From positions 56,420,001 to 56,484,000 of the forward strand of contig NC_043005.1 in the NCBI RefSeq assembly GCF_006345805.1: a DNA stretch of 64,000 nt, in the 5' to 3' direction. The notes below the pieces were generated by a model. That model ran no database searches, was not told where the DNA came from, and was given only the letters and a program-made list of their open reading frames with translations. Made by a program: the position numbers and the translations under genes. Below, one piece after another: positions 4,180 to 38,117 of this stretch. Numbering within the stretch: the first letter of the stretch is position 1; each line of letters opens with the position of its first letter. The DNA is from Octopus sinensis. Lineage: Eukaryota.

Positions 4180-4273
4180 TTTTAGTACAATTGTTTCATA
4201 CAAAGACAGGCTTTATTAAAAGTTGCAAAAATTGCAGCAGCAGATAAAAGTGTCCCGTACTCATCAGCTAAAA
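4180..4273 (-). ncRNA. Type I hammerhead ribozyme motif, canonical core
   Basis: - strand TTTTAG-CTGATGA-[GTACGGGACA...TGTCTTTGTAT]-GAAAC-AATT-GTA-CTAAAA; 6-bp stem I, palindromic stem III ACAATTGT, GUA triplet. Confidence 0.8.
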
Positions 4274-4647
4274 TACATATGAGTTCTCCAAACATCTTAG
4301 TGGGTGAGGCTATACTCATGAAGTATTGGAGATAATTTCATTAAAAGCAGATTTAGGTTGTAAACAGATTTCCGAAGTTCCTTAATGATGATGCACAGTC
4401 TTATCACAGGTTTTTAAAAAAGCTTATTAGCTTCACAGAGAAGGTGAATTAATCCGTAGTGTAGATGTAAATTTCCAGAGATATGAGGAGGAATTTCATA
4501 CTCACAGACGATGAATTTATCCACGGTTAATCCACAATGAGGTGGGTATCATTTCATGCTATATGATAAGGTATTTGCCACATTACTGTTCTTTTCACAA
4601 GACTGCTAAGTTATGACTTCTAAAGGCTGGAGGAATTTTTGTGGAGC

Positions 4648-4922
4648 AAAGAAAAGAAAAGAAAGGAAAGAGAAGAAAAGAGACAAGGAAAAGGAAAAAG
4701 AAAAAAGAAAAAGAAAAAAGAAAAAAGGAAAAGAAAAAAAGGAAAAGAAAAAAGAAAAAAGAAAAAAGGGGAGAAGAAAAGAAAAAAGAAAAAAGATTTC
4801 TTTTTTCTTTTTTCTTTTTTCATTTTTCCTTTTTCTTTTTTCTTTTTTCTTTTTTCTTTTCTTTCTTTTTTTTTTTCTTTTTTCTTTTTTCCTTTTTTTT
4901 CCTTTTTTCTTTTTTCTTTTTT
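4648..4922. repeat. Polypurine (A5-6G)n tract directly followed by polypyrimidine (T5-6C)n tract; imperfect fold-back
   Basis: A-rich 4648-4795, T-rich 4797-4922. Confidence 0.85.
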
Positions 4923-5216
4923 CAAATTTCTGCCCACTAAGCTGGAATTAATTCCAGTATTTGAAATGCCACAACACAGGTGTGGGTGGTTGTTATCAAG
5001 ACTAATCCATTGTAACTCAATTTTTATCAATTTTTTTTCAGTCACCCTTACACCAACAAGATTTCCCCGCCACTACCTCCACCACCACCACTCCGGGATG
5101 TGAGGGGGGCACTTGTTTCTGTGTGTACCTCCCAGTCTGTTCATAAATGCGTTTGTTGATACTGATACTGAAATCTATTGAAAACTGAATATGTCTTAAA
5201 AATTTTATAATTTCAG

Positions 5217-5360
5217 GATTTTTCATGGGAATGGTAATAGAAAAAATTGGTCTTAGGCTCTCTATTTTGTGTGGTAGTGTGCTCGCTACGATAGGATTTG
5301 CGGCATCGGCGTTTGCACCGCAGATCTATTACATCATCGTACTTATAGGAATTATAGGAG
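5217..5360 (+). CDS. SLC16/MCT-like MFS transporter, internal exon (about TM2-TM4)
   Basis: tttcag|GA ... GGAG|gtaagt, 144 nt, phase 1-1; GFFMGMVIEKIGLRLSILCGSVLATIGFAASAFAPQIYYIIVLIGIIGG matches the MCT GxRxxxxxG loop. Confidence 0.88.
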
Positions 5361-5518
5361 GTAAGTGAAATTTCTGCACATACACCATATAGAAAGCCAA
5401 AGAAGCTTTTGTTATTTGGCTGTTGAAGAAATATTTTCGCTCGTAGTTTCAAAACTGGAGGAGATTTAGGTTATCTATTCAGCTTGTTTGCGGCTCTTCA
5501 GTACCTCTAAATTGAAAA

Positions 5519-5974
5519 GGCAGGAGTGGCTGTGTGGTAAGTAGCTTGCTTACCAGCCACATGGTTCTGATTTCAGTCCCACTGTGTGGCACCTTGGGCA
5601 AGTGTCTTCTACTATAGCCTCGGGCCGACCAAAGCCTTGTGAGTGGATTTGGTAACGTCGTATATACATGTATATATATATTATATATGTATATATATAT
5701 ATATATATATATATATGTGTGTGTGGTGTGTGTGTGTGTGTGTGTGTGTGTGTGCGCGCGCGCGCTTGTGTGTCTGTGTTTGTCCCCACCAACATCGCTT
5801 GACAACCGATGCTGGTGTTTTACGTCCCCGTAACCAAGCGGTTCGGCAAGAAACCGATAGAATAAGTACTAGGCTTACAAAGAAGTAAGCCTAGTACTTG
5901 CTCGACTAAAGGCGGTGCTCCAGCATGGCCAGTGAAATGACTGAAACAAGTAAAAGAGTAAAAGGAGTAAAAGA
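5519..5974 (+). mobile_element. tRNA-derived SINE, family A (internal TA/TG microsatellite)
   Basis: Head GGAGTGGCTGTGTGGTAAG..TTCAGTCCC, CCTTGGGCAAGT core, tail GACTGAAACAAGTAAAAGAGTA; more than 12 related copies in the window. Confidence 0.9.
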
Positions 5975-34682: not shown

Positions 34683-35631
34683 ATCATTTTAAAGAGAAAG
34701 AAAAAGCAACTCTGTTGTCAGTGCCCCAACAAATGGAACTGACATTCTATCGGAATATAAGATCTATATCAGCAACGACAGTCCTATGAAAGAAACAGTT
34801 CAGTGCTGGAATAAATGACTTGTTACATTTACTTTCGATCTTCTAGGCTTAAAACTGAAGTTTTTCAAGAGCGACCTCGCATTTCAACCTTCTTGGGACG
34901 AATCTGCGCGTTCGTTAAATCTGCCAAAAAAACATCGCCACTTTTCCCTCTAATACAAACCTATCGTGCTAAAAATAATAAAGACATATTGAATAATATT
35001 GTCCCCGAAATACAGAAAGATGGAATCGTCATATCTGGAACGCTTTTGATTAAAGACATCAGCAGTATTAAGTCATTCAAAAAGTTGTTTATTTACCAGA
35101 GTTCTTTTAAAGTACTTAGGTTAAGATCTAAATCACCGTCACCCCGACCCACAAACCCACATCACACCACCACCACATTCTTGTCGACAGGCCGATAGTC
35201 TACAGCATTAGGTTAGATGTCTTCATAAACAACATTTCCATGCAAATGTCCTCACATGCTGTGAACATTGAGTCGAACACAGCCATAGCAAAAGCAAATA
35301 TTAAGTTAGTAGCGTTTTACGCCTTGTTAGATAGTGAGCCGTGGCGAGGACAAGTGAGGAAGAGGCATGACTCTACAACCTAACATGCGTTATCATTAAT
35401 TAAATAATCAAATAATCAAAAACTACCGAAATCATGTGTGTGTGTGCGTGCGTGTGCGTGTGTGTGTGTGTGTGTGTGTGTGTGTGTGGTGTGTGTGTTT
35501 ACACCTTTTACCATAAGAGAGAGAACTTTTTCTCCACGGTAACTGCAGTGAATTTGCCTATAGAAGTTGAAATATGTATGTGACAAACATATTTTAACTA
35601 ACTCAATATACATACATATATACATACATGA

Positions 35632-35946
35632 TGGAGGCGCAATGGCCCAGTGGTTAGGGCAGCGGACTCGCGGTCGGAGGATCGCGGTTTCGATTCCCAG
35701 ACCGGGCATTGTGTGTGTTTATTGAGCGAAAACACCTAAGAAGCTCCACGAGATTCCGGCATGGGGGGGGCGACCCCTGTTGTACTCTTTCGCCCCAACT
35801 TTCTCTCACTCTTTCTTCCTCTTTCTTGAGGTATAGCTGCGATGGACTGGCGTCCCGTCCAGCTGGGGGGAACACATACGCCACAGAAACCGGGAAACCG
35901 GGTCCATGAGCCTGGCTAGGCTTGAAAAGGGCGCATAAATAAATAA
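35632..35946 (+). mobile_element. SINE family B
   Basis: TGGAGGCGCAATGGCCCAGTGG (A box), GGTTTCGATTCC (B box). Confidence 0.9.
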
Positions 35947-36987
35947 TACATATATATACATATATATATAAATATATATATATATATATATATATATATA
36001 TATATATATATATATATATATATATATATATATATATATACATACATACACACACAAACACACACACATATATATATATACTTATTGAACAAAAGTTGTC
36101 AAGAATGCAGTCACAGCTCAGAACTAATTGAGTAACTTAAGTCAGCTCTAAATAACCTGTCTAGTCCAGATTAATTGTGTGTTAACTTGGCTTTATGAAT
36201 AAGTAATGCAGTTATACTTATAATGGCTTAGTCACTTGTCTAGCACGTCTTACCTGACTCACCATCCTGATAGTTAGATCCTGAAATCAAGACAACGAAT
36301 TAGAATGGTGTTTACTTAAGCTTTCTGTACATTCTCGATATTAAATATTAAACAAGTTTTCTCCTACGATTTCAGCTAAAAAAAGAATGTACTTTCGATC
36401 AAGATTATTTTACACAGTGGAGTCACTGGAGTTGATGTCTCTAGTGCAGTGACTCACCCATTACTATGAGCCTTACATTGTACCATACCAAATAGAACTC
36501 ATAGAAAAATTTGTATACTTCAATATATCCAATCAACTTAAGTGTCCATGTAACGCTGGCAAGTTATGGCAAACTGAGAATGGTATATAAATAAAGACGT
36601 AAAAACTAAAAGCGAACAAGAAAGATCTACAGATAAAGAACATTAATTAAATGTAGTTCAATCTTTTTGTAAACTTCATGAATTGTGTGTGTGTGTGTGT
36701 GGGGTGTGTGTGGGTGTGTGTGTGTGTGTGTGTGAGTGCGTGCGTGTGTGTGTGTGTGTGTGTGTGTGTGTGAGTGCGTGCGTGTGTGTGTGTGAGTGTG
36801 TTTGTATATGTGTGTGTGTATATATATATATATATATATATATAGAAAATAGTAAAAAGTGAAAAAACTACAGAAGGCTTGTTTTCAAAGGTTAAAAAAT
36901 ATATATTTGAGTCAATATGTCTGAAGAATGTTATAAATTTTTTTCATACAATGACATAGTTTATGTGTGTGTGTGTGTGTGCGTGTG

Positions 36988-37297
36988 TGGAGGCGCAATG
37001 GCCCAGTGGTTAGGGCGGCTGAGTCGCGGTTGTAAAATCGCGGTTTCGATTCCCAAACCGGGCGTTGTGAGTCTTTATTGAGCGAAAACACCTAAAGCTC
37101 CACGAGGCTCCGGCAGGGGGGAGGTCGATCCCTGCTGTACTCTTTCGCCCCAACTTTCTTTCACACTTTCTTCTGTTGGCCTGCTCGCTTAGCCAGCGGG
37201 GTGACGTCTTTTGAAGGCTAAAACAATGCGAAGCGCATTGTGACCAGCGATATGTAGCAACATCTGAAAGCCTGGTCGGTCACGGTAATTACGGTGA
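36988..37297 (+). mobile_element. SINE family B with a different 3' tail
   Basis: Same head as 35632; tail GAAGGCTAAAACAATGCGAAGCGCATTGTGACCAGCG. Confidence 0.88.
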
Positions 37298-37899
37298 TAT
37301 ATAAGTATGTATGTATTTATCTATGTATATATATACATATATATATTTCTTTTAATCTTTATTTCTCTCCACATTTATATTCTCTCCTACTGTGCCCTCT
37401 ATACATTCTGATTGAACCCTCCTTGTGTTAACATGTACCTCCCATGTGTTAACATGTACCTCCCTTTCATTTTATCAAGGTATCCTTGGCCTGAAGAGTA
37501 GCCTGTGGTATACACCTCGCTTGGATATCTACCACTTCTGAGGTAAATATGAGGCATATGTAGCTCGGATTTTATCTACCCTATTCTTAAAATCTTGTAT
37601 TCTTATACGCACACCCGGCAACGCTGGTCGCCTACCGTGAAATAAGAAAGGAACTTTTTTAGGTTTATCGTACTTCGTTACGAAATCTTAAAAAAATCCA
37701 CAACCTTCCGTCTCAATAAACCGGTATTGTTCCAGAAAATTGCTTTTTATATTTACTACGGATTACTTGAAACTAACTGTCTTCCTACACCTCGATCCCT
37801 GGATCTTTATATATATGCGACATTTACGTATGTATATATATATATATATATATATATATATATATATATATATATATATATATATATATACACACGCAC

Positions 37900-38117
37900 A
37901 TGATAGGTCGTCATAATAGATCGCCATGATAGATCGCTAGCCACTACACAATCTTTATTTTCTCTCCTTGTTTCTTTTTGTGTTCCTTTCTGTGTAAGAT
38001 CATAGGCTCGAAATGTTAAAGACTTTTTCACTTCCGGAGCGTTATACTAATACATCTATTTCTTGTCTACACCACTTGTCTTCGTCTTTTGCTCTTTTTT
38101 TTTGTGAATTCTCCCTG
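37900..38117 (+). mobile_element. Short (TA)n-flanked element with a decayed hammerhead-like core
   Basis: CTTT-CTGTGTA-AGATC..GCTC-GAAATGTT-AAAG; tail GAGCG..TACTAATAC..CTTCGTCTTTTG shared with 16845-16926. Confidence 0.5.

Follow-up and report, generated by a model that had tools for sequence, protein, structure and literature searches.

The hammerhead modules dispersed through a 64,000-nucleotide window of the Octopus sinensis genome (NC_043005.1, positions 56,420,001 to 56,484,000) are probably of two kinds, namely terminal repeats of Penelope-like elements (PLEs) and units without an open reading frame (ORF) that are likely copied by PLE enzymes. The module at 4180 would belong to a Hydra element, those at 13921, 32088 and 32723 to retrozyme-type units, and those at 13341 and 14391 to a Poseidon-type element with a tRNA-like head. 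Motifs, repeat units and linked ORFs bear out the view of an earlier note on this DNA that the modules are type I hammerheads of the PLE or retrozyme kind. The single non-autonomous population it proposed must be abandoned, with an autonomous Hydra PLE end at 4180, Poseidon-type repeats at 13341 and 14391 and only three ORF-less families.

The finding is largely known biology: hammerheads at PLE termini, the (TA)n targeting of Hydra elements, octopus included, and retrozymes have all been published. Here, young, near-intact Hydra elements occur in one genome together with ORF-less units of like hammerhead shape and target, with 3' end sites mapped, so the enzyme that moves animal retrozymes becomes testable in vitro. 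New here is that the tRNA-like head belongs to an autonomous, protein-coding element itself; the SINE-like hammerhead element of family E is nothing other than a coding PLE's terminal repeat.

Hammerhead cores and controls

A strict type I hammerhead descriptor, run over the window with 30 local dinucleotide shuffles as control, recovered all four canonical cores proposed earlier, at 4180(-), 13921(+), 32088(+) and 31943(-), with the boundaries given in Table 1. Each possesses the CUGANGA and GAAA boxes, the NUH triplet and three stems with an open stem I. The shuffles gave a mean of 0.1 matches (maximum 1). A second descriptor found four matches in the window and none in 98 of 100 shuffles, so that the proposed comparison with shuffled sequence came out well in favor of the window. 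Because the cores at 31942 and 32087 are the two arms of one inverted duplication, the independent canonical cores number three. The strict scan also detected cores at 32723(+) and 16413(-) that the earlier note lacked, each with one core mismatch; the core is intact in other copies of both families. A relaxed minimal-core scan added 18133-18158(+) and 26344(-), a result that is weak on its own because 100 shuffles gave a mean of 0.23 and a maximum of 2.

Table 1. Features of the window, in window coordinates
Position	Strand	Feature	Remarks
4144..4795	-	Family B 3' end, 5'-truncated (3' UTR and terminal repeat)	ends at (TA)n
4180..4273	-	Family B type I hammerhead	6-bp stem I, long stem II, 8-nt palindrome
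4797..4922	+	T-rich tract mirroring A-rich tract 4648-4796	tandem-repeat table
12896..13124	-	Family A inverted arm	95% match to 13456-14190
13238..13411	.	Family E terminal repeat: inverted arm 13238-13330(-), direct arm 13333-13411(+)	minimal hammerhead, damaged
13456..14190	+	Family A, 1.25 head-to-tail units, ends at (TA)n	586-nt unit, period 13479 to 14065
13925..14015	+	Family A type I hammerhead	window copy lacks one base of family palindrome
14250..14462	.	Family E second insertion: inverted arm 14250-14380(-), direct arm 14383-14462(+)	
16413..16460	-	Old low-copy family hammerhead	one core mismatch here; strict scan
18089..18276	+	Family F, short PLE-type end, variant minimal core 18133-18158	(TA)n flanks
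26344..26370	-	Degenerate minimal core	no stem I; no family found among loci examined
31801..32031	-	Family C inverted arm, hammerhead 31942-32002	
32030..32360	+	Family C direct arm, hammerhead 32087-32147	part of ORF-less unit
32383..33029	+	Family D: inverted piece 32383-32463, then ~1.25 units	hammerhead 32723-32796, core mutated
37940..38117	+	Decayed copy, family related to F	between TA runs; core lost here

The stems were said to differ between modules while staying complementary, and this holds. The palindromes are unlike between families, with self-complementarity retained, and among seven related Hydra copies 94% of cells are paired and 8 of 15 pairs have changed on both sides, against 26-48% paired in slid controls that ignore the relatedness of the seven copies. 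The description of the canonical cores as minimal does not apply because their stem II regions span 26-63 nt. A short palindromic stem III is present at 4180, while 32088 has a 4-5 bp hairpin instead. It is highly improbable that the motifs are chance hairpins in AT-rich repeats. Consistent with chance, an Rfam search of the window found no hammerhead at the gathering score, and none among the best 150 of 302 matches listed at E<=5; the advantage of the window hammerheads over shuffles in folding is slight (z from +0.3 to -2.2), and the modules at 9884 and 29761 fail. For the canonical cores, however, chance is rejected by the shuffles, the conservation of the core within families and the covariation. 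The canonical modules are real type I hammerhead-shaped motifs and are predicted to self-cleave.

A Hydra-clade element and ORF-less units at (TA)n tracts

The motifs of a related ORF mark the module at 4180 as the remnant 3' end of an autonomous Hydra-clade PLE, truncated on its 5' side. Over 653 aligned columns, the segment 4144..4795 shares 92% identity with the 3' region of an ORF-bearing copy, L083, and its hammerhead is predicted to cut after UA. A related copy, L119, has a full 947-aa single ORF in which YRDD (reverse transcriptase, RT) and VIY...YIG (C-terminal GIY-YIG) can be read, together with RWK at 35, DKT at 124, CxCx5C at 808, CxxC-E at 905 and CxH at 935. No CCHH was seen by eye, and a Pfam search of this ORF returned no match. 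The motif list of the Hydra clade consists of RWK, DKT, a CxCx5C linker, CxxC and CxH (PMC8557442, section 11), and family B shares these as well as a GIY-YIG without CCHH, a terminal-repeat hammerhead, (TA)n targets and an inverted 5' arm (PMC8557442). Another related copy, L117, has 483-nt direct terminal repeats, and in 17 of 20 loci a TA run lies within 166 nt. A hammerhead and (TA)n preference have been described for Hydra-1_Obim of octopus (Craig et al., 2021, supplement, PMC8557442). Compared by eye, family B differs from that element in its 947 aa, Asn-rich inserts, 3' UTR of ~1.3 kb and stem II region of ~60 rather than ~23 nt; it is also longer (~4.5 kb in L119) than the <3 kb general for the clade. 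The T-rich tract at 4797 is probably the short inverted arm of this insertion, in line with inversions at the same tract in L081 and L083. Linked PLE RT/GIY-YIG ORFs, which the earlier note had proposed looking for, were thus found for family B (L119), and likewise for family E.

Families A, C and D consist of units of 586, 467 (taken from natural copy L046) and 438-450 nt, with longest stop-free frames of 51, 90 and 48 aa and 822, 2101 and 901 first-look candidates, respectively; family A copies are 92-97% identical. In natural copies the units are closed head-to-tail and lack an ORF. Arrays hold only 1.1-1.3 units in families A and C, among about 20 loci each, and one family D locus (L086) carries 3.15 tandem units between TA runs. 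Like metazoan retrozymes, these units are ORF-less, low in GC and arranged head-to-tail, and every unit carries a single type I hammerhead (Cervera and de la Pena, 2020, PMC7229834). They differ in length (438-586 vs. 170-400 nt), in a longer stem II, and in their mostly 1-1.3 units, inverted arms and fixed (TA)n ends. Families A, C and D thus appear to be retrozyme-type units, known here from genomic DNA alone. Metazoan non-LTR retrozymes have been suggested to derive from PLEs as non-autonomous elements (PMC7229834; Li, Clavereau and Pollet, 2026, 10.64898/2026.07.22.740005); the word octopus is absent from the main texts of both papers.

The claim that most modules adjoin (TA)n is strong for families A to D, weak within the window and absent for family E. 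In the window, 8 of 15 measured modules have a (TA)6+ run no farther than 250 nt away, vs. 37% of random places. Among family loci, the core has a TA run no more than 300 nt downstream in 19/20 (A), 17/20 (B), 17/19 (C) and 14/20 (D), while only 3 of 40 family E copies have one within 150 nt. In families A to D the 3' ends are concentrated at one to two sites and continue into (TA)n. The inverted pairs that had been pointed out are present as inverted arms of insertions. An inverted 5'-truncated arm is an ordinary feature of PLE insertions (PMC8557442, Fig. 2 legend), and the pairs here are interpreted as such. Copies are often 5'-truncated and close with an inverted arm.

It is unlikely that every module is just the truncated end of an autonomous PLE, with the parents of A, C and D unsampled and the family E head a passenger, an old SINE insertion where the RT stalls and folds back. 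The sample does leave room for such parents, since the 19-20 nearest copies were read per family and, of 5083 first-look candidates for the Hydra RT, 20 were opened in long stretches. Against this, natural copies of A, C and D continue beyond their 3' end sites into the unit's own upstream part and not into an ORF.

The preferred reading, that A, C and D are ORF-less units, raises the question of their enzyme, and mobilization by Hydra enzymes appears likely. The link is drawn only from hammerhead shape and target because no significant shared sequence was found between A, C and D and the Hydra 3' region tested, nor among the three. A and D match Hydra hammerheads, and not the minimal type, in their long stem II, 8-nt palindrome and cut triplet. 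This shape, together with the PLE traits of inverted arms and fixed 3' ends, makes it quite improbable that an enzyme other than Hydra's (from Neptune, Naiad or an RTE-type LINE) moves these retrozymes or that they are partly amplified at the DNA level. Naiads also prefer (TA)n, octopus included (PMC8557442), other PLE ORFs are present in these loci, and A, C and D lack a sequence match to Hydra ends; however, cephalopod Naiads are reported as long-dead remnants (PMC8557442), in contrast to the close identity of family A copies.

By analogy with the Anolis enzyme (PMC11167929), a GIY-YIG endonuclease would nick AT-rich DNA, and the RT would start at a few internal RNA sites downstream of the hammerhead. 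The palindromes would then form because copies frequently stop short of the 5' end and finish with an inverted arm, an anatomy that is observed. For A, C and D the template may be multimeric or circular RNA, in which self-complementary stem III would let two hammerheads dimerize and cleave multimers into single units; family C could fold as a monomer.

A Poseidon-type element with a tRNA-like head

The modules at 13341 and 14391 are eroded pieces that derive from the terminal repeat of a Penelope/Poseidon-type PLE; this element, its clade assigned by motifs, does not target (TA)n. The hammerhead of this family E (2535 first-look candidates) is minimal: an additional nucleotide precedes a long stem II, stem I is short and a true stem III is missing. 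In both forward window copies stem II is broken and the palindrome changed, and the tRNA-like head is not included; the inverted arm of the second insertion extends to the 3' end of the repeat. The ORF encodes an RT with DKG and an endonuclease whose CxC and His motifs (CCHH type) are read from the sequence, without a linker zinc finger. The nearest relatives carry PF00078, PF26215 and often PF28514. In L338, L339 and L344, direct terminal repeats with the minimal hammerhead stand on either side of the ORF. The order is head, (AAT)n, start codon, hammerhead within the ORF, RT-EN, stop, and then head and repeat again.

Family E resembles Penelope/Poseidon PLEs in its minimal hammerhead with the extra nucleotide (Cervera and de la Pena, 2014, PMC4209133), DKG and CCHH-type endonuclease, and its ORF reads through the hammerhead as in the Anolis Poseidon PAc (Frangieh et al., 2024, PMC11167929) and the relative P0004. 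For the Anolis element, insertion in vitro did not need hammerhead cleavage (PMC11167929). Unlike those PLEs, its terminal repeat opens with a tRNA-like A/B-box head and (AAT)n, and a literature search found no report of a Penelope/Poseidon repeat of this kind.

The head begins the repeat outside the window and is found at both ends of full-length coding copies, with the arrangement head-ORF-head in L338 and L339. Of 19 loci with an ORF, 11 have the head after the stop codon and the other 8 are without that junction, and all 40 scored matches to an ORF-end query continue into the head. In solo copies, whose whole unit equals the terminal repeat of the coding partner, an A box and a B box are visible at tRNA spacing at the 5' end. 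What we take to be the A/B-box consensus matches L172 and not L159 or L158; its one match in the window is at another SINE. Neither ARAGORN (0/11 loci) nor Rfam at E<=10 matched the head to a tRNA, and its minimum-energy fold is no cloverleaf; for this reason the terms tRNA-like and SINE-like are used. The head is likely an internal RNA polymerase III (Pol III) promoter, and transcripts initiated at its 3' copy would account for the numerous short SINE-like copies.

Where copies begin bears on whether the head is a passenger. Of head-selected copies, a sample biased towards those resembling the solo query, 28 of 30 start no more than 7 nt before the head. Among 18 tail-selected copies, none is preceded by the ORF end and 9 carry the head. 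Only 3 of 52 ORF-bearing copies reach the 5' head, and all three start there. The passenger explanation draws on the 16 of 30 head-selected copies that adjoin an inverted piece of the element, with head-to-head palindromes centered on the head start, which is itself a short palindrome and could stop reverse transcription. It is countered by the remaining 14, not scored as adjoining such a piece, of which 12 still start at the head, and by the tRNA spacing that both boxes retain. Coding copies L209 and L329, in which ORF-end sequence adjoins an incomplete 5' repeat, show that the start of some templates lay upstream of the head.

A promoter reading of the head leads to the tentative possibility, which we consider less than even, that Pol III transcribes the coding element end to end, starting from a tRNA-type promoter that its terminal repeat has captured, making it both driver and, via the 3' repeat, its own SINE source. 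This is supported by the start at the head of all three coding copies that reach it and by the lack of a shared T4 terminator. Across 19 copies over 2.4 kb, 13 sense-strand T4 runs were observed against 46.6 expected, each private to one copy, while counts in 10 control ORFs were near expectation. Counted as one lineage, the deficit has P of about 0.03-0.1, and codon shuffles of one copy gave no significant deficit. If the reading is correct, the uncapped RNA would need cap-independent translation, perhaps with the hammerhead just inside the ORF, and a retrotransposon would be translating a long ORF from a Pol III transcript. This would contradict the usual assumption stated by Kojima (2024, PMC10886601), who argues that autonomous partners depend on Pol II and probably do not have the repeat in common with the non-autonomous elements.

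The arrangement recalls the schistosome SINE-like repeats Sm-alpha and Sj-alpha, with a Pol III-type promoter upstream of the hammerhead in Sm-alpha (reviewed in PMC6765202), and the TRIMp3 elements Cassandra, Helenus and Ajax, with a small-RNA-derived promoter inside the terminal repeat (Kojima, 2024, PMC10886601). Those are non-autonomous, in contrast to family E, where the head lies in both terminal repeats of a protein-coding element. Family E therefore suggests a route of origin for promoter-plus-hammerhead repeats of the Sm-alpha kind.

Near-canonical and degenerate modules

The near-canonical modules of the earlier note (13341, 14391 and 18129) stand at the level of their families, although the copies at 13341 and 14391 are damaged. 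The module at 18129 belongs to family F (1698 first-look candidates), with the variant core identical in 18 of 20 copies; a partner element was looked for and not found. The degenerate modules fared less well. There is no downstream GAAA at 9884 and no core in the stretch tested at 29761, leaving both unsupported. Partial cores exist at 12105 and 16132, with no family among the loci examined, and 26339 has just the relaxed core listed in Table 1. The module at 37987 has lost its core in the window, but it is a decayed member of a family with 18 matches among the loci examined, other copies of which carry a variant core. The family of the additional core at 16413 has 11 other copies at 71-82% identity.

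Hammerhead cores in the window

The hammerhead feature of the window is real. Most of it is already-known biology, and family E is the new part. Canonical type I hammerheads had been claimed at four places, and all four were recovered by a structure scan, which also returned two cores with one mismatch each that were absent from the earlier list. In shuffled sequence, the mean was 0.1 over 30 shuffles, and a second run gave zero cores in 98 of 100. The near-canonical sites also belong to real families, and the six sites described as degenerate fared unevenly, with one having a family and two failing (see the table). 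Rfam at the gathering score gave zero hammerhead matches in the window, and microsatellite hairpins dominated an Rfam E-value scan for which the best 150 of 302 matches were considered.

The window contains MFS transporter exons on the forward strand and, on the reverse strand, exons of a DYRK-like protein kinase. TA microsatellites are abundant, and the hammerhead modules sit within introns of the two genes or next to them. First-look searches of the 2.72-Gb assembly yielded 822 candidates for family A, 1613 for B, 2101 for C, 901 for D and 2984 for the PLE ORF of family E, numbers that are not copy numbers. About ten further hammerhead families, which have either perfect palindromes of other sequence or a longer hairpin as stem III, occur in flanking DNA (L117-L136 and other loci elsewhere in the genome). 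Earlier publications cover the hammerheads of Penelope-like elements (PLEs), the retrozymes of animals and the presence of Hydra in octopus, and the window families may already be in Repbase or Dfam.

Coordinates of hammerhead sites, genes and other repeats in the window
Position	Strand	Family	Feature
4180-4273	-	B	canonical core
13925-14015	+	A	canonical core
32087-32147	+	C	canonical core
31942-32002	-	C	canonical core
32723		D	core with one mismatch
16413			core with one mismatch
13341, 14391		E	near-canonical sites
18129		F	near-canonical site
37987			degenerate site, has a family
26339			degenerate site, passes a weak scan
12105, 16132			degenerate sites, partial
9884, 29761			degenerate sites, fail
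4144-4795		B	match to 3' region of a genomic copy
20597-20355	-		Hydra-like endonuclease remnant
4900-15900	+		MFS transporter gene
27824-63637	-		kinase gene
14490-14660			stump, additional PLE-type family, core 14538-14544
11841-11945, 13121-13225			two near-identical 105-nt AT-rich repeat ends
29590-29860			inverted repeat, ~80-nt arms; core absent in 29640-29810
16527-17204			255-nt inverted arms (93%)
18568-19077, 20524-21021	-		related GC-richer stretches, half-core at 18848 in the first
23540-24694			tandem units inside inverted arms

Families A to D and the Hydra clade

Families A, C and D consist of ORF-less units. Their periods, taken from natural copies of more than one unit, are 586, 467 and 438-450 nt, respectively, and the longest stop-free frames per unit are 51, 90 and 48 aa. 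Family D is present as 3.15 tandem units flanked by TA runs, and beyond the common 3' ends the sequence of C and A returns to the part upstream of the hammerhead. These units fit the non-LTR retrozymes (PMC7229834), and according to a 2026 preprint, non-LTR retrozymes are derived from PLEs (10.64898/2026.07.22.740005). An expression check weighs neither way: no RNA dataset was listed as carrying the D unit, and the contigs from small shares of two runs were mostly less than 95% alike.

The modules had been proposed to favor (TA)n, and this holds for families A, B, C and D and fails for family E. No more than 300 nt downstream of the core there is a TA run in 19/20 loci of A, 17/20 of B, 17/19 of C and 14/20 of D, the loci counted being the closest relatives of the window copies rather than a random sample. 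For family E, where 48 loci were examined, a TA run was found within 150 nt downstream in 3 of the 40 copies with a core. Copies end in clusters, at 176-195 (14 loci) and 281-292 (4) in A, at 29-40 (10) and 144-166 (7) in B, and at 124-136 (9) and 197-237 (8) in C. Internal 3' ends that cluster in this way at AT-rich targets agree with the mechanism of the Anolis Poseidon element (PMC11167929).

Because A, C and D gave zero sequence matches when tested against the Hydra 3' region, it is from hammerhead shape and target that we infer Hydra as their partner. Hydra ORFs near C or D matches at four loci (L042, L055, L058, L065) were considered as partners and rejected because they lie in the opposite orientation or are separated from the matches by TA runs and unrelated repeats.

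A search for linked RT-endonuclease ORFs had been suggested, and linkage was found for two families: family B candidates often form inverted pairs kilobases apart with such an ORF between them, and the tail of family E runs into a PLE ORF. The family B segment of the window is 92% identical to the 3' region of a genomic copy, L083. A search with the Hydra RT returned 5083 candidates with open frames reaching 1124 aa, and locus L119 encodes a 947-aa ORF containing RWK, DKT, a CxCx5C linker, CxxC and CxH. Craig et al. list these motifs as diagnostic of Hydra, and their supplement also gives Hydra-1_Obim a hammerhead and a (TA)n preference (PMC8557442). By eye, one flanking ORF is similar to Hydra-1_Obim, and together with SINE likeness this makes an octopus a probable host. 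Within the window, tblastn with two PLE proteins gave a sole match, a weak Hydra-like endonuclease remnant (28% over 81 aa, E 3e-4). Pfam, in a library without PF26215, assigned no family to the Hydra ORF of L119 or to the Poseidon-type frame of L216, and on L120 it gave a single weak, unrelated match.

Covariation was counted on Hydra copies alone, there being no usable alignment across unrelated families. The three stems covary across seven copies: 94.3% of cells were paired and 8 of 15 pairs were doubly changed, with relatedness uncorrected. Equally high pairing arose in 2 of 500 shuffles, and slid controls reached 26-48%, likewise uncorrected for relatedness.

Loci L119 (inverted, 100%) and L120 (tandem, 98%) have near-identical kilobase-long arms and long open frames, which suggests recent Hydra activity. 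A compact Hydra family is represented by a 662-aa frame (L135:297-2282) with a hammerhead of very short stem II at its 3' end. In the 3' UTR of an 842-aa Hydra family (L122, L131), a reversed core-like stretch lies near GAAAC, ~1200 nt past the ORF stop, and is possibly a second, scrambled hammerhead.

The family E element and its tRNA-like head

Family E carries the minimal hammerhead that Cervera and de la Pena described in 2014 (PMC4209133). Its ORF encodes DKG and a CCHH-type endonuclease, starts within the repeat and stays open across the hammerhead; two of 23 long relatives (P0004, P0125) open with the same peptide. Nine of the 18 tail-selected loci have, upstream, an (AAT)n tract and a tRNA-like head that bears A and B boxes. 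Neither ARAGORN nor Rfam called the head a tRNA.

Among ORF-bearing loci, the head begins ~25-30 nt past the stop codon in 11 of 19, the junction being absent in the other eight. All 40 scored matches to an ORF-end query continue into the head, in a sample biased to full matches, and copies L338 and L339 have the order head-ORF-head. The head is therefore part of the terminal repeat of the autonomous family E element. The alternative that a PLE end was added to a once solo SINE was rejected, since coding copies show that same junction past their ORF stop. The family looks worn because no intact ORF was seen and the longest frame examined is 551 aa. One metagenome scan for the head outside this genome gave nine loci at 30-55% identity, none with an A/B-box match and all too distant for a conservation test.

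Most 5' ends of the copies speak for a promoter role of the head. Of 30 head-selected copies, 28 start no more than 7 nt upstream of the head, and the ORF end is present in only two; it is present in none of the 18 tail-selected loci. Among 52 ORF-bearing copies, a direct 5' repeat was flagged in 13, and the three that extend to the head all start there. Against such a role, the templates of two ORF-bearing copies, L209 and L329, began upstream of the head. The clustering of 5' ends at the head could also be explained by a fold-back stop at a small palindrome, because an inverted piece adjoins 16 of the 30 head-selected copies.

Runs of T4 terminate transcription by Pol III. On the sense strand of 19 family E copies, 13 such runs were observed against 46.6 expected, each confined to one copy, while ten control ORFs with 2-17 runs each were near expectation. 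When weighed as one lineage, the deficit has a P of about 0.03-0.1, and in codon shuffles of one family E copy it was not significant. Judged on sequence, a Pol III origin is probable for the short family E copies; for the full coding RNA, it is rather unlikely.

The literature searched, which was short on subscription journals and mostly judged without full text, yielded no mention of a coding PLE whose repeat has a tRNA-type head. Two related arrangements are published. In schistosomes, SINE-like repeats combine a promoter with a hammerhead (PMC6765202), and the non-autonomous TRIMp3 elements carry small-RNA promoters within their terminal repeats (PMC10886601).

Other repeats in the window

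Several further repeats accompany the hammerhead modules. The PLE-type stump includes a small inverted piece and ends at (TA)n, and one 73% relative occurs in L261. The 105-nt AT-rich repeat end, whose relatives adjoin TA runs at other loci, looks similar to a part of family D. The inverted repeat around the failed site at 29761 has 9-nt tandem flanks. The 255-nt arms consist of a common SINE end and flanking sequence around a poly(A)/TA core. The two GC-richer stretches are CAG/AAC-rich, and the half-core in the first reads GAAACG. Finally, four 163-nt tandem units, in which no hammerhead was found, lie inside 237-nt inverted arms (95% complementary) with short TTAGGG-like runs, and this structure is perhaps a foldback or MITE-like element.
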